Virus genome (UHGV): UHGV-0268189
Strand: one strand, 5' to 3'
DNA: 10,296 nucleotides
From: a virus
The notes under the pieces are model-generated. The model made no database searches. It was not told the DNA's origin and saw only the letters and a program-made list of their open reading frames with translations. The translations under genes and the position numbers were made by a program. Position 1 is the stretch's first letter. Each line of letters begins with the position of its first letter. Positions 1-10,296 of the stretch are shown here, piece by piece.

Positions 1-1
1 C

Positions 2-136
2 GGTGGCTGGAAGGCATTTTTGTGGAAGCCACCCTATGCATACCGGCAGATAAAGGTGACCTGTGCCGGGTGGTCTGCGCGGGTCGGGATGTTGCGCGTT
101 GAGTTCAGCGCGGAGTTTAAGCAGGTGGTGAACTGA
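2..136 (+). CDS. M: Tail protein M, C-terminal 44 codons plus stop, plus-strand copy, partial at left window edge
   Basis: Frame 2 translates to GGWKAFLWKPPYAYRQIKVTCAGWSARVGMLRVEFSAEFKQVVN*, the native M C-terminus. The same bases recur reverse-complemented at 240-362. Confidence 0.7.
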   Translation, partial: GGWKAFLWKPPYAYRQIKVTCAGWSARVGMLRVEFSAEFKQVVN

Positions 137-246
137 TGCAGGATATTCGAGAAGAAAGTCTGAGCGAGTCGGTTAAATCAGAGCAGTCACCGCGGGTGGT
201 ACTCTGGGAAATTGACCTGACGGTGCAGGGTGGTGAGCGTGCTTAA
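136..246 (+). pseudogene. L: Tail protein L, N-terminal 35 codons only, truncated at foldback junction
   Basis: ATG at 136 overlaps the M stop (TGATG). Translation MQDIREESLSESVKSEQSPRVVLWEIDLTVQGGER matches the lambda L N-terminus, then homology ends at 240 and a stop follows at 244-246. Confidence 0.7.
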
Positions 247-556
247 ACTCCGCGCTGAACTCAACGCGCAACATCCCGACCCGCGCAGACCACCCGGCAC
301 AGGTCACCTTTATCTGCCGGTATGCATAGGGTGGCTTCCACAAAAATGCCTTCCAGCCACCGTGCTCTGCCAGGAACGCTTCCAGATGCCGGGCCTCCTC
401 CCGGGTCACGGAAAGCGTCACCCTGTATGTTTTCAGGTCAGCATTCAGCCCTGCCGCCATACGCTGTGAGTACCCGTCACCAAAACGCACTTCACGCACC
501 GATGGCTGCGAGTTCACCTCCATATCCGGCTTCACTTTCCAGCGAAAGGTTTTCAT
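173..556 (-). CDS. M: Tail protein M, first 105 codons native, last 22 codons aberrant read-through across the foldback junction
   Basis: MKTFRWKVKP...RVEFSAEFK matches lambda M; after K (242-244) the ORF reads the reverse complement of the L start (HAHHPAPSGQ...) instead of QVVN*. ATG overlaps the H stop. Confidence 0.8.
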   Translation of the reverse strand: MKTFRWKVKPDMEVNSQPSVREVRFGDGYSQRMAAGLNADLKTYRVTLSVTREEARHLEAFLAEHGGWKAFLWKPPYAYRQIKVTCAGWSARVGMLRVEFSAEFKHAHHPAPSGQFPRVPPAVTALI

Positions 557-3165
557 CCACCGCTCCCTGATAACATACCGCCATCACGCAACTGCAGCCG
601 GAGTTCATCCTGTGCCCCCTTGCGGGCCATCTCATACACCGCTTTCATCAGCTGCGGCCCTGCCCGCCCGTTGGGGCCGTCGTTCTGAATCACCACGTGA
701 TTGTTCTGATTAAAATTAATGCCTTCCGCCCGCCGCATCTGCGCCGGACTTCCGGCACCGCCGACATAACCACCTTCCGCATAGCCCCGCATCAGGCGGT
801 ACAGATTGCCGACACCAATCCGGCTGGTCGCCTCCTTCGTGAAGACAAACTCCCCGCGATGAACAATCCCCGCAGGTTCATATTTACCCCCCGTCCCCGT
901 AAATCCCCCGGTCGCGAAATGGAAGTTCGCCGCCGCAGCCTGAATGGCTGTACCGCCTGACGCGGATGCGCCGCCACCAACAGCCCCGCCAATGGCGCTG
1001 CCGATACTCCCGACTATCCCCACCATCGCCTGCTTCAGAAAAATCTCTGTCAGCATGGACAGCACAGAACGGGTGAAACCACGCCAGTTCTGTTCGCTGC
1101 CGGTCAGCATCGCTGCCATATTCTGTGCAATACCGTCAAAGGTCTGCGTGGCCGCGTTTTTAACCTGCGAAAAACTGTCCGTCGCACTTTCCGCCCACTC
1201 GCCCCAGCCGGACTTCATCCCGGCCATCCAGCTTCCACGAAGCTGCTCCTCCGCAGACCAGGTGTTCTTCAGTGCAGATGTGGCCTTCGCCAGCGCAACC
1301 GGATTATCACCGTACACCTCACGAAGGCGCTGCTCTTCCGACTCCCGCTGCGCCTGACGGTCGGTGAGTCCGCGGGCTTTTGCGCTGATTGCCGCCTGCT
1401 TCGCGCTCTGCTGCTGTTCAAACCGCGCCGCCTGCTGTGCCAGCTCATTCAGCCGTTTCTGGTGTTCAATCTTGTCGCCCAGCTCAGCCAGCTGGCGTTT
1501 GTACTCCAGCGTTTCTTTCTCATGGGCCAGCAGGGATTTTTCCTGCTCAGATAACTGCCGTTTCGTGGCAGCCTCTTTCAGGACCGCATACTGACTTTCC
1601 GCCTTCCATAAATCACGGCGCTGCCGGCTGATTTTCTCATTCGCACCGCTGTGTTTTTCCAGCGTCCTGAGCTCAGCTTCAAGGGCAAGCAGAGCCTCTC
1701 TTGCCTGCTCCTCTTCCCTCTCCCCGGCAGAGCGCGTTTTCGGTGATGTATGCTTTTTACCTGTCAGCTCTTCAGCCAGACGGCTGACGGCTTCCTGCTG
1801 CCCAGGACCTTTGCTGACGCCTGTTGCACGCGAGCGGTTGATGTACCCCATTTCCCCCTGGCGTATACGCGCATCCCGTTCCGCAATGGATTTTCTCAGC
1901 GCCAGTTCATCGCGTTTTGTTTTCTCAATAAATACGCGGTTCTCTTCTGCCAGTTCACCAAACAACGCACCAACGCCGGGCACATTCTTTGTCGTTTCCC
2001 AGGCTGACTGAATAAATTCAGCCAGCGCCAGATCCCCCTGCACAAGCAGCAGCTTCACCTGTTCAACGGTTCCGGCCACCACGTCAGTGATCAGACTGAG
2101 TGCCCCCAGTGTATGATCACCTATCCATGCCCATGCGTCAGAAGTCCAGGTTTTAACATCGTCCCAGATTTTTTCCACCGGCGTGGCCGCTTTATCAAGT
2201 TGCTCCAGACGTGCATTCATGACATCCGCAAACAGGGACATCGCCTCCGTCACCGCAGCCTGTTTACCTTTCGTGCGCTCAAGCTCATCAATATGGCGTA
2301 ACTGGGAAACGCTCAGGAAGTTATACTGCTGATTCAGGGAGGCCAGCGCCTTCACCGGATCTGCTGCAATCCCTTCAAAGGCTTTTTCCACCTTCCCGGC
2401 ATCGTCCCCCACCGTCTGCAGCCATCTCTGAGAGGTTTCCCCCATGATCCGTAGCTGCCCGGCGGTATATTTCCCGCTTTCTGCCAGACGGGCCAGATTT
2501 TCTGCCGCCTGTCTGATACCACCACCGGCTTCATCGCTGATCACCCCGGCCATTTTCCACAATTCTGCCGTTGTGGTGGCAGCCGCCCCTCCGGTCAGGA
2601 TCAGTGAACGCAATAAGGCCCGGTCAGCCTGCTCTGCCTGCCAGGCGGCGGCAGCAAGCGCGGCCAGTACGGCAACCCCGCCACCTGCCGCCACACGGGC
2701 CACCGACATAAATCGTCCCAGCTCACCGGCATTCCGGGCATTTTCAGCCAGTGCATTTGCCGTATCTGACAGCGACTCCTCTGATGATTCAGAGGCATCC
2801 CTGATCCCGAGAAGTTCCTCCTTCAGCAGGGTAAGCAGGCTGAGCGGTCCACCGAATGAATCGCTGATCTGCCCCCCCTGCTGCAGCATGATAAGGAAGG
2901 GATTCTGACCACCGGCAAGCTGAGTGACAATATCCGTGAACTGTGCGGGCAGTGTGCGCATGGCAGCCTTATACTGTCCGACTGATATCCCGGCTTTTTG
3001 TGCAGCCAGCGCCTGTCGGCTCAGCCCCTGTTCAACAGTACTGGCGGTTTTTCTGGCATCCGCCTCCAGACTGGAAAAATGACGGCGTACCCGGGCCATC
3101 TGTTCATCAAACCGGGCCGCATCCAGACTCAAATCAATAACCAGATCACCCGCTGGCTGGGACAT
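553..3165 (-). CDS. H: Tail tape measure protein H (870 aa)
   Basis: N-terminus MSQPAGDLVIDLSLDAARFDEQMARVRRHF and C-terminal third (LWKAESQ...GGFTGTGGKYEPAGIVHRGEFVFTKEATSRIGVGNLYRLMRGYA) match lambda H; central region diverged. RBS GGAGGTG 6 nt upstream. Confidence 0.92.
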   Translation of the reverse strand: MSQPAGDLVIDLSLDAARFDEQMARVRRHFSSLEADARKTASTVEQGLSRQALAAQKAGISVGQYKAAMRTLPAQFTDIVTQLAGGQNPFLIMLQQGGQISDSFGGPLSLLTLLKEELLGIRDASESSEESLSDTANALAENARNAGELGRFMSVARVAAGGGVAVLAALAAAAWQAEQADRALLRSLILTGGAAATTTAELWKMAGVISDEAGGGIRQAAENLARLAESGKYTAGQLRIMGETSQRWLQTVGDDAGKVEKAFEGIAADPVKALASLNQQYNFLSVSQLRHIDELERTKGKQAAVTEAMSLFADVMNARLEQLDKAATPVEKIWDDVKTWTSDAWAWIGDHTLGALSLITDVVAGTVEQVKLLLVQGDLALAEFIQSAWETTKNVPGVGALFGELAEENRVFIEKTKRDELALRKSIAERDARIRQGEMGYINRSRATGVSKGPGQQEAVSRLAEELTGKKHTSPKTRSAGEREEEQAREALLALEAELRTLEKHSGANEKISRQRRDLWKAESQYAVLKEAATKRQLSEQEKSLLAHEKETLEYKRQLAELGDKIEHQKRLNELAQQAARFEQQQSAKQAAISAKARGLTDRQAQRESEEQRLREVYGDNPVALAKATSALKNTWSAEEQLRGSWMAGMKSGWGEWAESATDSFSQVKNAATQTFDGIAQNMAAMLTGSEQNWRGFTRSVLSMLTEIFLKQAMVGIVGSIGSAIGGAVGGGASASGGTAIQAAAANFHFATGGFTGTGGKYEPAGIVHRGEFVFTKEATSRIGVGNLYRLMRGYAEGGYVGGAGSPAQMRRAEGINFNQNNHVVIQNDGPNGRAGPQLMKAVYEMARKGAQDELRLQLRDGGMLSGSGG

Positions 3166-4008
3166 ATCTCACACCTCCGGAAATCCCCGCTGAAGCCATC
3201 ATTAATGCAACATCATCCTCGCTGACATCCACCACATCCGCAGAAGGTGAAATATCGCGCCCTCCGTCCCCTCTGAACCGGACGCCTCCGGCAACTCCTG
3301 TCGCTTTCTGCATCAGCATTTCTTCCTCGTCCGGCATCTCCGTCTGCTCTTCCTCACACGCTGGAGCAAGCAGACTGAAATCCGCCGGATGCATATCCGG
3401 ATCGCCAAAAAACAGGCTGAGTACGGCGTACATCAGCCCGGAAAAATGAGCGTCCAGTTGGGTATCCTGAAAATAATGCGTGCAGTAAAAACGTCGCCAG
3501 TCGGCATATTCGGTGGATGTCATCCCGGCAAGCATGGCGCGCCAGTCGGGTCTCCCCATCTCTCGCGCCAGTTTCAGGACAAAGTTCAGCTCGCCTTCGA
3601 ATGCTTTTTTGATGTTACCGGCTCAGTCGCTTCTGCTTTCCCGGTTTGTTCAGGATCGGCATCGTGCCGGTTATCCAGCATACCTGAAAGATAAAGCACC
3701 CGGTTCGTTGCCTGATTCAGTGCATCAGCAGGCCATCCCAGCATCACTTCACGGCGGATCTGCTGCATCTCTGTCTCCGGAGAGGCCAGAGTGCCTTTGA
3801 GGGAATGGGTATGCCATAGCGACATCGCCACAAGCAGGGATGCCGTTTCCAGATATCGCTGGTTAATGTGCACGACATCATGCTTCGTTGTCTCCTGTTG
3901 TTCTGCGTCTGAAACAAACTTTATATAATCAAACCGCTGCAGCGCAGACAATTCGGAAAGCGTGACGGACATACCGTTATATTCAAATTGTTCTGTTTTC
4001 AGAAACAT
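3146..4008 (-). CDS. T: Tail assembly chaperone G-T fusion made by programmed -1 frameshift from G into the T frame
   Basis: The -1 frame is open from 3622 down to the stop at 3146 and encodes ...AFEGELNFVLKLAREMGRPDWRAMLAGMTSTEYADWRRFY..., matching lambda T. It has no independent start upstream and overlaps the G 3' end, as in lambda G/GT. Confidence 0.8.
3172..3178 (-). promoter_or_regulatory. Ribosome binding site for H (GGAGGTG)
   Basis: Reverse complement of cacctcc, 6 nt upstream of the H ATG at 3165. Confidence 0.6.
3586..4008 (-). CDS. G: Tail assembly chaperone G (140 aa)
   Basis: MFLKTEQFEYNGMSVTLSELSALQR... matches lambda G (MFLKTESFEHNGVTVTLSELSALQR). RBS GGAGGT at 4014-4019. 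Position between V and H. Confidence 0.9.
   Translation of the reverse strand: MFLKTEQFEYNGMSVTLSELSALQRFDYIKFVSDAEQQETTKHDVVHINQRYLETASLLVAMSLWHTHSLKGTLASPETEMQQIRREVMLGWPADALNQATNRVLYLSGMLDNRHDADPEQTGKAEATEPVTSKKHSKAS
3604..3610 (-). promoter_or_regulatory. -1 ribosomal frameshift slippery heptamer A AAA AAG for G to G-T
   Basis: Minus strand ...aca tca aaa aag cat...: zero-frame codons AAA AAG preceded by A. It lies 3' of the T-frame stop (3623-3625) and 5' of the G stop (3586-3588), the only interval where a shift can yield GT. Confidence 0.7.
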
Positions 4009-4013
4009 GTATT

Positions 4014-4019
4014 ACCTCC
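4014..4019 (-). promoter_or_regulatory. Ribosome binding site for G (GGAGGT)
   Basis: Reverse complement of acctcc, 5 nt upstream of the G ATG at 4008. Confidence 0.6.
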
Positions 4020-4260
4020 GTTTACCCTGCAGCGCCCGCTTCAGTAACGGTGACTTCAGCCACTGCGGCGAACTGACCATTTCCGCTCACCACAGGGATC
4101 TGCACCTTACCTGTCGCCACGCCGTTTACCGTAATTGTCATATCTTTCACACTAATGGTGGCTTTCGACGGATCGGCGGAAACCGCTCTGAACGTCTTGT
4201 CGGTTGCACTTTCCGGCTCAAAAGAAACCGTCAGGGTGGTTGTTTTCCCTTTTGCCACCG

Positions 4261-4509
4261 TACCGGATGTCGGCGTCACCTTAATCGCACTGACCGGCGT
4301 AATTTTGCTGCGTTCTTCCGAAATCCGTTTTCCGAATGGCACGGTGGATGTGTTTCGTGGCTGGGTCAGCAGTATCGGTAAGGCCGTGACGGCGAAAGAA
4401 GTGATCACCCGCACGGTGAAAGTCACTAACGTGGGTAAACCTTCTGTAGCGGAAGAACGCAGCAAAATTACGCCGGTCAGTGCGATTAAGGTGACGCCGA
4501 CATCCGGTA
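4261..4509. repeat. Perfect 60-bp inverted repeat, arms 4261-4320 and 4450-4509 (V codons [19 protein letters not shown])
   Basis: Reverse complement of 4450-4509 equals 4261-4320 exactly by direct comparison. Confidence 0.9.
4321..4509 (+). other. V-gene internal segment (codons about 109-172) in inverted, plus orientation
   Basis: Plus-strand translation [63 protein letters not shown] is collinear with lambda V ([39 protein letters not shown]...), opposite to the rest of the gene. Confidence 0.85.
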
Positions 4510-4564
4510 AGGTGGAAAACCCAGCCACGAAACACATCCACCGTGCCATTCGGAAAACGGATTT
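4321..4564. repeat. Perfect 46-bp inverted repeat, arms 4321-4366 and 4519-4564 (V codons [15 protein letters not shown])
   Basis: Reverse complement of 4321-4366 equals 4519-4564 exactly; mismatch at both flanks. Confidence 0.9.
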
Positions 4565-4896
4565 TATAGGCCCGGACATCGCCGCTTTCAAACCAGCCTA
4601 TAAGCCCTTTCTGGCCTTCCTCTCCCGGTTTCCAGGCCAGCGTAAAACTGGTATCACCTGCAGATTTCTGCCCCTGCCCGGTCGCGGTCCAGTCCGCGTC
4701 TTCATCATCCAGGTAGTTATCATCGTAGGATTCTGCCGTCATCTCGCCCGGCGTCAGATCCTTCACCTTAGCCAGTCGCTGCCAGTCATCGTCTGACAAC
4801 GGGTTTGCATAAGCATCACCCTTGCCGTTGTAAACCCACAGAGTGGTACCGGCACCTTTTACCGGCTCAAGGGGATTTGGTGTTGCCATATCGTCC

Positions 4897-5292
4897 TCAC
4901 ATCTCGTATGTAATGGAATAAGTCAGATCTGCAGAACTCCATAACGCCATATCGTCATCACGACGATACTCATAGCCCTGCGTAACCATCGTGGTAATCA
5001 GTCCTGCCAGTGCCGGGATCGCAGTCATCGCCGGGTAAATCCGGCTTTCCATCCACTGATCAAGCTCTGAATCCGGTACCTGTGCCGGTAAAAACACCTC
5101 AATATGCAGCGTGGCCCGCCAGGTATCTGCATCCAGCTCTTCACCGGTATACTCTGCATCCGTCAGATAAACCGCGATCGCAGGAAAATCCTCTTCGTCA
5201 AAAACAACGGGGCGACCATCAAACAGCGTCGCCCCGTGTTCATGCTGCTCGAGTGCATCCAGCACTGCGGCACGAATGTCAGTGTGTTTCAT
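4897..5292 (-). CDS. U: Tail terminator protein U (131 aa)
   Basis: [28 protein letters not shown]...[11 protein letters not shown] matches lambda U ([28 protein letters not shown]...). 396 nt as in lambda; ATGA overlap with Z. Confidence 0.9.
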
Positions 5293-5864
5293 CGTTTTAT
5301 TGCAATCCTCAGTTGTTGTTTCAGCGCGTATGCCAGTTCTTTAGGCAGGCGTTCACGCCGGATACGGTCAACATTCTCATCAAATGCCTGTTTCAGTGGG
5401 GCCGCCATCGGGATTTTCACCACCTGAATGGGAAGGCGATTACGCTTTTTCCTTCCCTTGTCGTCATTGCCCTCCTCATATCTGGCCTGGGGAAGACGTT
5501 GCATAACATGCCAGCGCCCATTATTTAATCGCTGGATAAATGCCCGCTGATAACGATGCTGACCGGCTTTGAGTATGCTGTTCGGACGACGCCCCAGCAT
5601 TCTGATCCCCAGCTTAATCACAGGGAGATCACCGCGGTTAACGATAATTCTGGCATTCGGATTTCTGACCGTCGCCCGTTTCAGTCTGGACCGTTCCTTT
5701 ACCAGTTTCCGTCTCACCCTGGTTTCCCGGGCAACCTGTGACGAAGACTGATTAATCGCCGTTGTGGCCACGCGGTTAATGGTCATTGCAGAAGCAGCCG
5801 GAATGGCGTTTTTACGAACCCGGCTCAGATTATCAATCGCCTGATCAAGCCCTTTTATCGCCAT
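5289..5864 (-). CDS. Z: Tail completion protein Z (191 aa)
   Basis: MAIKGLDQAIDNLSRVRKNAIPAASAMTINRVA...[25 protein letters not shown] matches lambda Z at both termini; central part diverged. Confidence 0.88.
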   Translation of the reverse strand: MAIKGLDQAIDNLSRVRKNAIPAASAMTINRVATTAINQSSSQVARETRVRRKLVKERSRLKRATVRNPNARIIVNRGDLPVIKLGIRMLGRRPNSILKAGQHRYQRAFIQRLNNGRWHVMQRLPQARYEEGNDDKGRKKRNRLPIQVVKIPMAAPLKQAFDENVDRIRRERLPKELAYALKQQLRIAIKR

Positions 5865-5879
5865 AATTTCACCCTGCGT

Positions 5880-6233
5880 TTATCGTCGCCGGTTAACAGC
5901 GGGTGGTTGCCCACGGTTGAGCCAGAGATAACAGCTTCCACCATCATCCGGCGAAACCCGGTCTATCCAGAAGTTTTCCTCACCGATGGTCAGCGTGTCT
6001 CCACGCCGCAGTTGCCGCACATCATCAGTCCGGACAAACAGGGACGGGCTGGAGCCTTCAACGCGCACGCCCTGTCCGGCATAGCTGATATTTTCAGGGT
6101 CATCAAAAACACCACGTATTACTGCGCCGGACTGCTCACCGGATGTCATGGTGGCTGACGTTCCCATGTACCCGCGTATCGTTTCATCGGCGCGGGCAAT
6201 GGCAGCATCGAACAGGTTATCGAAATCAGCCAC
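5880..6233 (-). CDS. FII: Head-tail joining protein FII (117 aa)
   Basis: MADFDNLFDAAIARADETIRGYMGTSATMTSGEQSGAVIRGVFDDPENISYAGQGVRVEGSS... near-identical to lambda FII; 354 nt as in lambda. Confidence 0.92.
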   Translation of the reverse strand: MADFDNLFDAAIARADETIRGYMGTSATMTSGEQSGAVIRGVFDDPENISYAGQGVRVEGSSPSLFVRTDDVRQLRRGDTLTIGEENFWIDRVSPDDGGSCYLWLNRGQPPAVNRRR

Positions 6234-6244
6234 AGCGCCTCCCG

Positions 6245-6631
6245 TTATTGCATTCTGGCCAGGCCGCGCTCTGTCATTTCAGCTGCCACACCGGCAGAGA
6301 CACGGAACGCCGTTCCCGGCAGCACAAATGCCACAGTGTCATCCCGCGTGGCGTGAAGTGCATCAGTATGCAGCGTCACCAGTGCCACAACCGTGACCAG
6401 ATCAGCCGTATCAGTCACGGTATCCGGCTGCGCTGATACAACCTCATTTTCATGTCCGGTCAGCGCATTTTCCGGGCTGATAGGGGTATCCTGATCGGCA
6501 GTGTCATCAAGCTCCTCTTCCAGCTCTGCCACACGGAGCGCCAGTTCTTCTTTCGTTCCCGTCAGGCTGACATCACGGTTCAGTTGCTCACCCAGCTCCT
6601 GAAGACGGGCAATCAGTTCATCTTTCGTCAT
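6245..6631 (-). CDS. FI: DNA packaging / head completion protein FI (128 aa)
   Basis: Start taken at the internal Met of the 141-aa ORF (MTKDELIARLQELGEQLNRDVSLTGTKEELALRVAEL...), which matches the lambda FI N-terminus and has RBS GAGGAG at 6635-6640. C-terminus ...VAAEMTERGLARMQ matches lambda. Confidence 0.88.
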   Translation of the reverse strand: MTKDELIARLQELGEQLNRDVSLTGTKEELALRVAELEEELDDTADQDTPISPENALTGHENEVVSAQPDTVTDTADLVTVVALVTLHTDALHATRDDTVAFVLPGTAFRVSAGVAAEMTERGLARMQ

Positions 6632-6634
6632 GAA

Positions 6635-6640
6635 CTCCTC
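6635..6640 (-). promoter_or_regulatory. Ribosome binding site for FI (GAGGAG)
   Basis: Reverse complement of ctcctc immediately upstream of the FI ATG at 6631. Confidence 0.5.
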
Positions 6641-6653
6641 CACAGAGAGAAAA

Positions 6654-6669
6654 TGGCCCCGAAGGGCCA
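6654..6669 (-). promoter_or_regulatory. GC-rich stem-loop with UUCG tetraloop in the E-FI intergenic region
   Basis: Sense strand 5'-UGGCCC UUCG GGGCCA-3' (6-bp stem) just after the E stop, followed by UUUUCUCUCU and the FI RBS. Confidence 0.5.
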
Positions 6670-6672
6670 CGA

Positions 6673-7698
6673 TTACGCCAGTTGTACGGAAACGAACTCA
6701 TCAGGGTCAGCCAGCAGCATCAGCGGTGCTGACTGAATCATGGTGAACTCACGCGCCGGATCGCCGGTGGTCACCCAGTTTTTCGGGTAACGGGCAGAGG
6801 CGTTAATGCCTTCGCGCTGTGCATCCGCATCCTGAATGCAGCCATAGGTGCGCAGACCGCGTGCATGAGTGTTACCCAGCACCATCGTGTTGTCCGGCAG
6901 GAAGTTCTTTTTGACGCCGTTTTCCACGTACTGTCCGGAATACACGACGATGGCCACATCGCCATACATTCCCTTATAAGACACCGCTTTGCCCAGGTCT
7001 TTTACCGCTGTCTCCAGTTCGGAATGAGAGCCGCGACGGGTATCCAGCTTCTCCCTGACGGCTTTGAAGGAACGGAACAGCGCCCAGCCTTTCGGGTCAA
7101 ACACGATGATATTCACCACGCCGCTGGCGTTCAGCGCGTAGGCTTCGATATCGTCGGTCGGGTCATACGTGGACTTGTCACGCTTGCTCCACTCCGTGTC
7201 GCCGGACTGTGTGATGTTGTTCGCCGCACTGCGGCCCATATCCACCTCAACCGGATCAAAGGCTTCACCGGTCATGGTGTATTTGCCCTTAAGCACGGCA
7301 GAAACTGCCTGCATCTCTTCGACCTGGGCAATGGCCAGCTCTTCGTCACGCATGTTCTGCATGATGATGCGACGGCGGCGGTAAGCCGGGTCCGCCAGAT
7401 TCTGCGGATCTTCATCCGGCAGGCGACGCAGGGTCATCTGCGGATTCACCTCATGCTTCGGCTTGACATATCCCGGCGTAAATTCAGAGGTGGAGCCGCC
7501 ACGGGAACGGATAACCTCACCGGAAACAATCGGCGAAACGTACAGCGCCATGTTTACCAGTCCCGGAATTTGTGAGAGATAAACTTTCTCCGTGGTGAAG
7601 GGATAGCTCTCACGGAAAAAGAGACGCAGAAACAGCGGATCAAACTTAAATTTATGCTCATTTGCCGCCAGCAGCTGGGCGGTTGTGTACATCGACAT
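6673..7698 (-). CDS. E: Major capsid protein E (341 aa)
   Basis: Start at the Met giving MSMYTTAQLLAANEHKFKFDPLFLRLFFRESYPFTTEKVYLSQIPGLVNMALYVSP..., near-identical to lambda E over its full length; 1026 nt as in lambda. The ORF-track start at 7725 is an upstream in-frame extension. Confidence 0.95.
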   Translation of the reverse strand: MSMYTTAQLLAANEHKFKFDPLFLRLFFRESYPFTTEKVYLSQIPGLVNMALYVSPIVSGEVIRSRGGSTSEFTPGYVKPKHEVNPQMTLRRLPDEDPQNLADPAYRRRRIIMQNMRDEELAIAQVEEMQAVSAVLKGKYTMTGEAFDPVEVDMGRSAANNITQSGDTEWSKRDKSTYDPTDDIEAYALNASGVVNIIVFDPKGWALFRSFKAVREKLDTRRGSHSELETAVKDLGKAVSYKGMYGDVAIVVYSGQYVENGVKKNFLPDNTMVLGNTHARGLRTYGCIQDADAQREGINASARYPKNWVTTGDPAREFTMIQSAPLMLLADPDEFVSVQLA

Positions 7699-7711
7699 AA
7701 AAAAATCCCGT

Positions 7712-7736
7712 AAAAAAAGCCGCACAGGCGGCCTTT
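7712..7736 (-). terminator. Intrinsic-terminator-like hairpin in the D-E intergenic region (stem GCCGC/GCGGC, loop CUGU, then U7)
   Basis: Sense strand 5'-AAAGGCCGCCUGUGCGGCUUUUUUUACGGGAUUUUUUU-AUG(E). Plus-strand stem arms at 7719-7723 and 7728-7732, flanked by A7 at 7712-7718. Confidence 0.45.
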
Positions 7737-7753
7737 AGTGATGAAGGGTAAGG

Positions 7754-8086
7754 TTAAACGATGCTGATTGCCGTTCCGGCAAACGCGGTCCGTTTTTTCG
7801 TCTCGTCGCTGGCAGCCTCCGGCCAGAGCACATCCTCATAACGGAACGTGCCGGACTTGTAGAACGTCAGCGTGGTGCTGGTCTGGTCAGCAGCAACCGC
7901 AAGAATGCCAACGGCAGCACCGTCGGTGGTGCCATCCCACGCAACCAGCTTACGGGTGGAGGTATCCGGCATCAGCGGGGTCATTGCAGGCGCTTTCGCA
8001 CTCAATCCGCCGGGCGCGGTTGCGGTATGAGCCGGGTCACTGTTGCCCAGCGGCTGGTAATGGGTAAAGGTTTCTTTGCTCGTCAT
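7754..8086 (-). CDS. D: Head decoration protein D (110 aa)
   Basis: Start at the Met giving [110 protein letters not shown], near-identical to lambda D; 333 nt and 9-nt gap after C as in lambda. Confidence 0.95.
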
Positions 8087-8095
8087 AAACATCCC

Positions 8096-8701
8096 TTACA
8101 CTGGTGTGTTCAGCAAATCGTTAACGGCATCAGATGCCAGGTTACCTGCAGCCAGCGGTGCCGGTGCCCCCTGCATCAGACGATCCAGCGCAGTATCACT
8201 GCGCGCCTGTGCACTCTGTGGTGCTGCGGCCAGAATGCGGCGGGCCGTTTCCACGGTCATACCGGGGGTTTCTGCCAGCACGCGGGCCTGTTCTTCGCGT
8301 CCGTGAGCCTCCTCACAGTTGAGGATCCCCATAATGCGGCTGTTTTCTGCCGCAACCGCAGCGTTGATCTGCGCGTTCACGTCCGGCTGCGCCGCGCTGG
8401 CGTTTTGGCCCTCCATCGCTGGCACCACGCCAGTAACGTCAGCCTGCGAAGCAGTGGCTGAAACAGTTGTTGATTGAGTCTCTTTGGTCATTCGCCCTCC
8501 TGAGAGACGGGATTTACGTGCATCCAGTGCATCACGCATGATGGTGATCGCATCGGTACTGTTAACAAGTTCATCAGCCAGTCCGGCATCAATGGCCTCC
8601 TGACCGCTGTACACTGCAGCCTCGGTATCCAGCACAGCCTGCACGGACAGGCCGGTATATGCCGACACCTTCTGTGCAAACATCCGGCGGGTTGCATCCA
8701 T
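8096..8701 (-). CDS. nu3: Capsid scaffolding protein Nu3 (201 aa), in-frame internal start within C
   Basis: ATG at 8699-8701 in the C frame (MDATRRMFAQKVSAYTGLSVQAVLD...); same stop as C; 606 nt as in lambda Nu3. Confidence 0.8.
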   Translation of the reverse strand: MDATRRMFAQKVSAYTGLSVQAVLDTEAAVYSGQEAIDAGLADELVNSTDAITIMRDALDARKSRLSGGRMTKETQSTTVSATASQADVTGVVPAMEGQNASAAQPDVNAQINAAVAAENSRIMGILNCEEAHGREEQARVLAETPGMTVETARRILAAAPQSAQARSDTALDRLMQGAPAPLAAGNLASDAVNDLLNTPV

Positions 8702-9415
8702 CCGGGACTGCAGTGTTTCCCGGACATCATCCGGTAGATGGCTGTAGGGGTTGCCATCCACCTTATGGCTGCCGCTGTAAATCAGCGTGATTTCCACGCC
8801 CTGTTTCTCCAGCGCAGCACCGTAATTACTGTGAGCCATCATGACGCCGATGGAGCCTGTCCGGGCGGTCTGCGTGACCAGACGCCGGGAGGCGGCACTG
8901 GCAAGCAGCTGACCTGCGCTGCAGTTCATGTCATTGGCCAGCGCCCATACCGGCTTTATGTCACGCACACGGGCGATGATGTCAGCGCAGTCAAATGCCC
9001 CTGCCACCATTCCGCCGGGCGTGTCCATATCCAGCAGAATGCCGTCCACCATCGGGTCGCTGGCAGCCTGTTGCAGACGGGCGATAATGCCGTTGTAACC
9101 GGTCATCCCCGAATACGGCTGCAGCGCCCGCGTCCGGCAGACCAGCGTGCCGGAAACCGGCAGCACGGCGATGCCGTTCATGACCTGATAACTGCGGGCC
9201 TGTCGTGGTACGTCATCATTAACGGATAACGCCAGCTTCGCGGGTGCCTCTCCGGCAGTCAGGCTGTCACCGGACACCGCATCCGTCAGGCGGCTGATCC
9301 CAAGCTGGCCTGCAAGCGCACAAAAGAAAACCCGCGCATAGGCGGGTTCAAGCATAAGCGGCTCATTAAAGGCCATGCTGGCAATATGCGGGAGATTACG
9401 CAGCTCTGCTGTCAC
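8096..9415 (-). CDS. C: Head protease / minor capsid protein C (439 aa, GTG start)
   Basis: From GTG at 9413-9415 (RBS GAGGAGGAG at 9420-9428) the frame gives (M)TAELRNLPHIASMAFNEPLMLEPAYARVFFCALAGQLGIS...NDLLNTPV, near-identical to lambda C; 1320 nt; 20-nt overlap with the B 3' end as in lambda. Confidence 0.93.
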   Translation of the reverse strand: MTAELRNLPHIASMAFNEPLMLEPAYARVFFCALAGQLGISRLTDAVSGDSLTAGEAPAKLALSVNDDVPRQARSYQVMNGIAVLPVSGTLVCRTRALQPYSGMTGYNGIIARLQQAASDPMVDGILLDMDTPGGMVAGAFDCADIIARVRDIKPVWALANDMNCSAGQLLASAASRRLVTQTARTGSIGVMMAHSNYGAALEKQGVEITLIYSGSHKVDGNPYSHLPDDVRETLQSRMDATRRMFAQKVSAYTGLSVQAVLDTEAAVYSGQEAIDAGLADELVNSTDAITIMRDALDARKSRLSGGRMTKETQSTTVSATASQADVTGVVPAMEGQNASAAQPDVNAQINAAVAAENSRIMGILNCEEAHGREEQARVLAETPGMTVETARRILAAAPQSAQARSDTALDRLMQGAPAPLAAGNLASDAVNDLLNTPV

Positions 9416-10155
9416 TCTTCTCCTCCTCTGTTGATTGTCGCAGTCCGGATTCAAATGCCGCAGCCGCCCAGGCGGGCGGTTTAAGACCGGCTGCACGGCG
9501 CTCCATCGTTTCACGGACCTGCTGGGCAAAAATTTCCTGATAGTCGTCACCGCGTTTTGCGCACTCTTTCTCGTAGGTACTCAGTCCGGCTTCTATCAGC
9601 ATCACCGCTTCCTGAACTTCTTTCAGACCATCGATGGCCATACGACCGGAGCCTATCCAGTCACAGTTCCCCCAGGCGCTGCGGGCTTCCTGAAAGCTGA
9701 AACGCGCTTTTGAAGGTAACGTCACCACGCGGCGAACGATGGCCTCTTCCAGCCAGCACAGAAACATCTGGCTCGCCTGACGGGATGCGACGAATTTTCG
9801 CCGCCCCATAAAGTACGCCCACGACTCGTTCGCACTGGCCCGTGCCGTGGAATAGCTCATCTGGGCGTAATTCCGGGAAAGCTGCTCATACGAGACACCC
9901 AGCCCGGCAGCGATATACCGCAACAGTGACTGCTCAAACACGGAGTAGCCGTTATCCGTATCCTGAGCCGTCTGCAGGTTCAGTGAGTCACCCGGCATCA
10001 GGTGCGGCACTTTTGCGCCTCCCAGCCGAACCGGTGCTGCGGCGTAATACGCGGCAATTTCACCAATCCAGCCGGTCAGCTTGTCCCGCTGCTCCTGACT
10101 GTTCGCGCCCAGAATAAAATCCATCGCTGACTGCGTATCCAGCTCACTCTCAATG
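9396..10155 (-). CDS. B: Portal protein B, C-terminal ~253 codons only; upstream part replaced by foldback junction
   Basis: Minus frame reads IESELDTQSAMDFILGANSQEQRDKLTGWIGEIAAYYAAAPVRLGG...STEEEKSDSRAA*, matching the lambda B C-terminal half. Upstream of about 10155 the frame reads unrelated residues and hits a stop at 10194-10196. The ORF-track start at 10124 is an internal Met. Confidence 0.85.
9420..9428 (-). promoter_or_regulatory. Ribosome binding site for C (GAGGAGGAG)
   Basis: Reverse complement of ctcctcctc, 4 nt upstream of the GTG at 9415. Confidence 0.6.
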
Positions 10156-10296
10156 CCCGTGGAGGACGGGCAGACCCGCGGTGCAAATGTGTTTTACAGC
10201 GTGATGGAGCAGATGAAGATGCTCGACACGCTGCAGAACACGCAGCTGCAGAGCGCCATTGTGAAGGCGATGTATGCCGCCACCATTGAGAGTGAG
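10143..10296. repeat. Inverted repeat, arms 10143-10155 and 10284-10296 (right arm cut by window edge), spacer 128 bp
   Basis: Reverse complement of 10284-10296 (cattgagagtgag) equals 10143-10155; mismatch at 10156/10283. Confidence 0.7.
10150..10296 (+). CDS. B: Portal protein B internal fragment in plus orientation, partial, runs off right window edge
   Basis: Plus frame from 10150: SMPVEDGQTRGANVFYSVMEQMKMLDTLQNTQLQSAIVKAMYAATIESE, the B segment immediately N-terminal of IESELDTQSAMDF in lambda. Confidence 0.8.

Follow-up and report, generated by a model that had tools for sequence, protein, structure and literature searches.

A strand-flipped segment in the tail tube gene V of a lambdoid prophage sequence is most likely a joining artefact

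The gene for the major tail tube protein, V, is interrupted in the virus genome UHGV-0268189 by a segment that lies on the wrong strand and is flanked by inverted copies of V sequence. We examined the whole 10,296-nucleotide stretch of DNA in which it lies (hereafter the window) and conclude that the interruption of V is most likely a non-biological joining error and not a real feature. Three tiles within the 10.3 kb are strand-flipped; the segment is the middle one, and the other two are cut by the window ends. The window as a whole would be a mis-joined version of the late operon of an intact lambdoid prophage, with joins that arose in amplification, sequencing or assembly. A preliminary description of this DNA, made from its sequence, had read the interruption as an isolated biological inactivation of V. 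That reading is disfavored, as the V flip is one of three flipped tiles and the remainder of the window is identical to intact prophages. Chance-level microhomology at the junctions, errors clustered at a tile end, and the occurrence of the arrangement in no other searched record also speak against an event specific to V.

Tiling of a lambdoid late operon

Based on the list of open reading frames (ORFs) and on annotated collinear relatives, the minus strand of the window is the late morphogenesis operon of a lambdoid E. coli prophage. It carries genes M, H, T, G, V, U, Z, FII, FI, E, D, C, and part of the portal gene B. Gene names were taken from the annotated relatives, whose gene order is matched by the synteny U-V-G-T-H, and the intact prophage in GCA_900449035.1 (L003) served as the comparison sequence. 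Genes T (3146-3559) and G (3586-4008) are otherwise intact, and G has a slippery heptamer, GGGAAAG, close to its 3' end (positions 3636-3642 of the minus strand); in lambda, a G-T fusion is produced at this place by -1 frameshifting. Apart from the flips, the sequence reads as an ordinary, well known prophage module.

BLAST comparison with the collinear relatives revealed flips beyond V, at 1-239 and 10156-10296, which the preliminary description had overlooked. The window can be written as S5(+) S4(-) S3(+) S2(-) S1(+), with the wild-type order preserved and the strands strictly alternating (Table 1). Neighboring tiles retain their overlaps on both sides, and these amount to at least 123 bp for S5/S4, 71 bp for S4/S3, 46 bp for S3/S2, and at least 13 bp for S2/S1. 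The long collinear block S4 contains M (minus its last 13 nt), the tape measure gene H, T, G, and the C-terminal part of V, while S2 contains the V N-terminus, U, Z, FII, FI, E, D, C, and the C-terminal 253 codons of the portal gene. S5 carries the 3' end of M and the first 104 nt of gene L, opposite to the operon strand, and the last 13 nt of S1 (10284-10296) are an inverted copy of 10143-10155. The end flips break M/L (S5) and the portal gene (S1), and read-through over junction A generates the C-terminus of the gpM variant listed in Table 1. The tiles follow the reference sequence and only the orientation of the three flipped ones is wrong, with 0 mismatches in S5, S4, and S1. The window ends 239 nt and 141 nt past a strand-flip junction.

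Table 1. Coordinates of tiles, junctions, inverted arms, and junction-affected ORFs in the window.
Feature	Positions	Strand	Description
Flipped tile S5	1-239	+	Equals L003 12804-13042, + strand; 0 mismatches
Arm pairing with 240-362	1-123		At least 123 nt, 100%; E 2e-61; clipped by window start
gpM variant ORF	173-556	-	127 aa versus 109 aa in wild type
Junction A	239-240		Blunt; microhomology 0 nt; wild-type positions 116 nt apart on opposite strands
Collinear block S4	240-4320	-	Equals reverse complement of L003 8846-12926; 0 mismatches
Spurious ORF	4022-4591	-	Ends in 99 residues of the V C-terminus, with its Ig-like (Big_2) domain
Arm Y	4250-4320	-	V codons AEERSK...TSGTVAKGK on minus strand; inverted copy at 4450-4519
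Truncated V ORF	4281-4889	-	202 aa: 124 wild-type and 78 aberrant residues
Junction B1	4320-4321		Blunt; microhomology 0 nt; wild-type distance 129 nt
Flipped tile S3	4321-4519	+	V codons ~109-175; equals L003 8717-8916, + strand
V middle (SSIGK...GKPSV)	4367-4449	+	Sole copy in window, in flipped orientation only
Junction B2	4518/4519		Microhomology 0 to at most one ambiguous shared base; wild-type distance 154 nt
Arm X	4519-4564	-	V codons on minus strand; 46 nt, 100%; inverted copy at 4321-4366
Collinear block S2	4519-10155	-	Equals reverse complement of L003 3126-8762; one SNP, at 9615
Junction C	10155-10156		Blunt; microhomology 0 nt; wild-type distance 128 nt; cuts portal gene
Flipped tile S1	10156-10296	+	Portal-gene codons; equals L003 2998-3138, + strand; 0 mismatches

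The microhomology of the four junctions is at chance level: random inverted joins over similar distances in the same sequence had a microhomology of 0 in 56% of trials. No excess of tolerant complementarity was found in the last 12 nt at the junctions. With both microhomology and complementarity at chance level, annealing-driven strand switching, whether by multiple displacement amplification (MDA), fold-back, or MMBIR, is not favored. Templated filler at junction B2 was also considered and rejected; the 12-mer TAAGGTGGAAAA is found nowhere else in L003 on either strand, and a 9-nt match to 4103-4111 is at the level of chance.

Outside the flips, the window differs from L003 and two further relatives (L007 and L008) by one SNP in ~10 kb. 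This SNP, at 9615 inside the portal gene, is A in the window and T in all three relatives. The exact 242-aa portal fragment with the 9615 variant is on record in a few other assemblies, and the fragment retrieved only ordinary portal genes truncated at contig ends. Given a single SNP over this length, the rearrangements would have to be younger than almost any point mutation.

The arrangement itself was not found in any other record searched. In 5,426 complete E. coli genomes, no place covers at least 80% of window 4000-4900. There are 609 records that match at 99% or above, and among the matches listed V always appears as two collinear pieces; the best V-region matches span 786 bp versus 901 bp in the window. 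V is collinear and the arrangement absent in the phage and plasmid records as well. The best matches to the whole window end exactly at 240 and 10155. Exact searches returned no copy of the B1 sequence in viral, genome, or metagenome contigs, none of the junction A sequence in viral and metagenome contigs, and none of the junction C sequence in viral and genome contigs. There is no record of the junction-spanning products (the 202-aa V, a 189-aa ORF, and the 127-aa gpM variant), and in a similarity search the aberrant tail of the 202-aa V was covered by none of 5.8 billion proteins. Judging from these comparisons, no other searched record shares any of the junctions. In collinear relatives the arm positions are occupied by single copies and there are no repeats.

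Two relatives with an identical tape-measure protein carry lesions in the same part of the operon. One (L006, ~8286-9158) has a plain deletion of ~885 bp in Z/U/V, and in the other (L010, 6680-7312) ~2 kb is deleted, resulting in an FII-G fusion ORF.

The interrupted V gene and its inverted arms

The preliminary account of the V reading frame was borne out. On the minus strand V is collinear for 124 codons, as residues 1-124 of the ORF are those of wild-type V. Translation places V residues IRFPNG...TPTSG on the plus strand at 4321-4509, and the minus strand from 4320 to 4022 encodes the wild-type V C-terminus. The V pieces sum to 250 aa, and rejoining them in silico yields a protein identical to V of intact relatives. 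The gene is a lambda-type V with Phage_TTP_12 and Big_2 domains, and alignment of the rebuilt 250-aa protein matched lambda gpV chains in the PDB with E values of 2e-127 to 1e-126. In wild-type V the Phage_TTP_12 tube domain spans residues 18-152 and the Ig-like Big_2 domain residues 161-241.

As written, the window encodes no full-length tube protein, in agreement with the earlier claim, and contains instead the 202-aa ORF with a partial tube-domain match. The Pfam Phage_TTP_12 match in this ORF covers profile positions 1-110 of 135 only, versus positions 1-135 for wild-type V from L003, and the tube domain is not complete in any one frame of the window V. Big_2 is found in the window only on the spurious ORF at 4022-4591 and is never joined to the tube domain in a protein of ~246-250 aa. 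The flip also gives rise to a 213-aa antisense ORF on the plus strand (4155-4796), which has V residues 109-171 in frame. As its V part is flanked by antisense read-through, this ORF is a by-product and not a gene.

The inverted-repeat pairs around the V segment are real, with BLAST E values of 1e-18 and 1e-28 that are far beyond chance. Of the two pairs, 4261-4320 with 4450-4509 is perfect, as described previously, and we add an imperfect extension to 4250-4320 with 4450-4519; the extended pair measures 71 nt, with one mismatch and one 1-nt gap. The unique middle of 83 bp at 4367-4449 was also correctly delimited. The inverted segment is likewise present, but its reported length of 189 bp is not correct: it comprises 199 bp in the window (4321-4519), corresponding to exactly 200 bp of wild-type sequence. 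Relative to L003, tile S3 contains a C to A change at 4510 and has lost a C between 4515 and 4516. Both changes fall in the last 11 nt of the tile, and the 1-bp deletion explains the 199 bp in the window versus 200 bp in wild type. Mutagenesis resembling that of diversity-generating retroelements was rejected as a source of the differences between the arm copies, which are a C to A change and a lost C and are not adenine-directed.

The two arm pairs are interleaved and occur in the order Y, X', middle, Y', X across 4250-4564. Neither a single strand nor the late mRNA could form the 71-bp and 46-bp duplexes simultaneously as nested hairpins. Long perfect duplexes in a transcript would be expected targets of RNase III, if the sequence were real.

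Origin of the joins

The sequence as it stands shows the tiling, joins with microhomology no higher than chance, and identity to intact relatives. That the joins were made outside the cell, as mis-oriented tiles or as strand-switch chimeras, we infer, and we regard it as the probable explanation. Five overlapping wild-type pieces would have been strung together in order, with the wrong strand used for the three short pieces (≥239, 200, and ≥141 bp). The overlaps between neighbors would never have been merged and so would appear as duplicated inverted arms, and the V interruption would be the middle flipped tile and have no function. Candidate routes include scaffolding or gap closing in which short contigs or reads were placed the wrong way round, whole-genome amplification whose strand-switch chimeras ended up in a long read or contig, and a sequence built by hand or by software.

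Mis-oriented short tiles account at once for the blunt and arbitrary ends, the unmerged overlaps, the preserved order, the tile-end errors, the 200-bp tile, and the position of the window ends just past junctions. Errors in the last 11 nt of a 200-bp tile are what would be expected near the end of a read or contig. Were the window ends independent of the flips, it would by our own estimate be extremely improbable for both to lie just past a junction; their position suggests a link between ends and flips, with the window being a complete contig or read. A point against an artefact is that the anatomy of the middle event is also predicted by two natural mutation models, which are considered below.

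Wrong orientation of short contigs is a known error of scaffolding (PMC7672694). The window resembles such scaffolds in that short wrong-strand pieces sit in the right place between long, correctly oriented ones, with blunt arbitrary ends, duplicated overlaps between neighbors, and errors concentrated at a tile end. It differs from them in that its joins contain no Ns or gap marks and its overlaps follow no single k-mer length. De Bruijn graph nodes were rejected as the origin of the tiles, as the overlaps are not of one constant length. Collapsed-repeat boundaries were rejected for the ends of the V tile; these ends lie inside, and not at the edges of, a 786-bp stretch that different prophage types share at 100% identity.

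A direct-orientation counterpart of the unmerged tiles exists in the same prophage family. The public draft contig BDHQ01000095.1 (L017; 10,923 bp) consists of direct-orientation tiles corresponding to [1-5681], [5599-8970], [8674-9231], and [5250-5535], the second of which was obtained as two BLAST pieces (L003 5599-7673 and 7849-8970). It retains unmerged overlaps of 83 bp in the capsid region and 297 bp inside V, and contains a 4-kb back-jump. In this contig a 350-aa V results from the 297-bp overlap, Nu1 is also split, and a stray piece of the head-decoration gene D follows a truncated G at the contig end. Two further contigs, BDKU01000060.1 (L018, 10001-11053) and BDLC01000052.1 (L019, 8970-10022), encode one and the same 350-aa V, in which 301 bp including the V start are duplicated in direct orientation, and their head modules differ, one being lambda-like and the other of the Clp-protease/capsid type. 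Either the 350-aa V of these two contigs is a real duplicated allele that travels along with the tail module, or the same assembly error arose more than once. Three lambda-type V proteins, each from a single assembly (P0003, P0004, and P0005), have internal direct duplications of ~74, 47, and 39 aa, respectively, all of which begin near 'TSFTLAW' or 'SAGDTSF'.

Amplification chimeras fit the window only in part. Long-read data from MDA contain approximately one inverted chimera per 3.4-10.9 kb, with short chimeric distances for which preferences of ~80 and 250-300 nt have been reported, and the chimera junctions usually have an overlap of 3-8 nt, typically 5-8 nt. The window shares with these phi29 products the joining of adjoining segments from opposite strands of one locus, here 116-154 nt apart, as well as several junctions per 10 kb, a dominance of inverted joins, and uniqueness to the sample; a single MDA read can be split into five adjacent segments. 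In contrast to the MDA chimeras, the junctions of the window are essentially devoid of overlap and fall below the 3 nt expected of such chimeras.

The strongest rival to an origin outside the cell is that the rearrangements are real and very recent mutations in one isolate, three events having killed V, M/L, and the portal gene to leave a dead prophage. We consider this unlikely. It could have come about by either of two routes. In the first, a switch-and-return replication error, the nascent strand would have copied ~200 nt of the opposite strand in the configuration termed '3-1-4-2'. In the second, two staggered nick pairs would have been filled in and the excised piece joined back the other way round.

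The anatomy of the V tile agrees with a 3-1-4-2 switch (Loytynoja & Goldman 2017). Projected onto the wild-type sequence, its points fall in the order 3 < 1 < 4 < 2 (in L002, point 3 at 10011, 1 at 10081, 4 at 10165, and 2 at 10210), and a copied fragment that overlaps points 1 and 4 creates two inverted repeats around an inverted spacer. However, 3-1-4-2 is the rarest class of template switch (~1%), and events are usually tens of bp in size (PMC5453318). The published events are short and single, whereas the fragment here is 200 bp, there are three in 10 kb, and microhomology that could prime a template switch is not available.

The anatomy is also that of a staggered break, with inverted duplications (46 and 71 nt) of single-copy DNA at both ends and low-microhomology joins, and such joins suit the route by fill-in and ligation. 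The staggered-break inversions known from Drosophila breakpoints differ in being of chromosome scale and in occurring in a eukaryote with non-homologous end joining (NHEJ), whereas the V tile is 200 bp and lies in a bacterium without canonical NHEJ. E. coli is generally held to lack Ku/LigD and canonical blunt end joining, which weighs against this route. The junction-adjacent errors at 4510 and 4515/4516 are in keeping with repair synthesis of the error-prone kind, of which errors near junctions are a known feature in the MMBIR literature.

Decay in this region does occur in the same prophage family, as the deletions in L006 and L010 demonstrate, but in these relatives it takes the form of simple deletion with no flips. 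A real origin would also require three independent events of a rare type within 10 kb that carry one SNP, with both window ends just past junctions and with junctions that occur in no second record among those searched. A variant in which the three local inversion-duplications, essentially blunt, arose as a burst in one prophage within few generations and left a RecA-flippable 46-bp arm pair appears improbable to us.

That the segment is a programmed or otherwise exploitable invertible switch, with recombination between inverted arms toggling production of the tail tube, seems a very faint prospect. RecA-mediated flipping could be supported by inverted arms that are perfect over 46 nt and nearly so over 71 nt. 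The Ig-like domain of gpV is dispensable in lambda. A simulated flip on the 46-nt arms gave a V that is collinear over 171 aa and then continues with 31 aberrant residues, and a 171-aa V would span the whole tube domain (Pfam 18-152; PDB 2k4q covers 1-153) without the Ig-like domain. No single flip restores wild-type V, however; a simulated flip on the 71-nt arms gave V(1-124) followed by junk, and wild-type V would be regained only by a flip and then a deletion between the direct repeats that the flip creates. On the strength of these simulations a reversible switch was rejected.

Comparison with known invertible switches (Hin/Gin/Cin, Fim, and the shufflons) leads to the same result. The V segment is, as in these systems, bracketed by inverted repeats within a phage structural gene region. 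It differs from them in having two interleaved arm pairs, which are copied coding sequence and not recombinase sites, and in that neither orientation yields a complete product. The 10.3-kb window contains no recombinase gene, its substantial coding-strand ORFs all being morphogenesis genes M to B, and the repeats are absent at the arm positions of collinear relatives. The flips in M/L and the portal gene would in any case take away tail-tip and portal function, and with them tails and heads. With no restored V, no recombinase gene, no repeats in relatives, and two further flips, a programmed switch is very unlikely.

An exchange between two oppositely oriented lambdoid prophages of one chromosome, by homologous recombination or gene conversion, is similarly far-fetched. 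E. coli genomes have up to 15 places that match the V region, among which V is highly conserved, but homologous exchange would produce collinear hybrids and not a flipped 200-bp piece with duplicated flanks. The sequence of the flipped tiles is that of the prophage itself, with 0 mismatches for S1 and S5, and the junctions are at points without homology.

Meaning for lambdoid tail genes

If the joins are an artefact, as we favor, a tail gene with an inverted segment and duplicated arms needs to be checked over the whole contig and against collinear relatives before it is given a biological reading. The signature of such an artefact would consist of alternating-strand tiles, unmerged overlaps, junctions without microhomology, and tile-end errors.

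Even if the rearrangements were real, they would constitute no new genetic system. A real burst would represent a shatter-and-rejoin or multi-switch replication accident, similar to chromoanasynthesis, in a bacterium thought to be without blunt end joining, and the 46-bp arms could then toggle V between a null form and an Ig-less form in which the tube domain is complete. Clustered blunt-ended inversion-duplications in E. coli would, if real, be an outcome that current views of bacterial repair do not predict.
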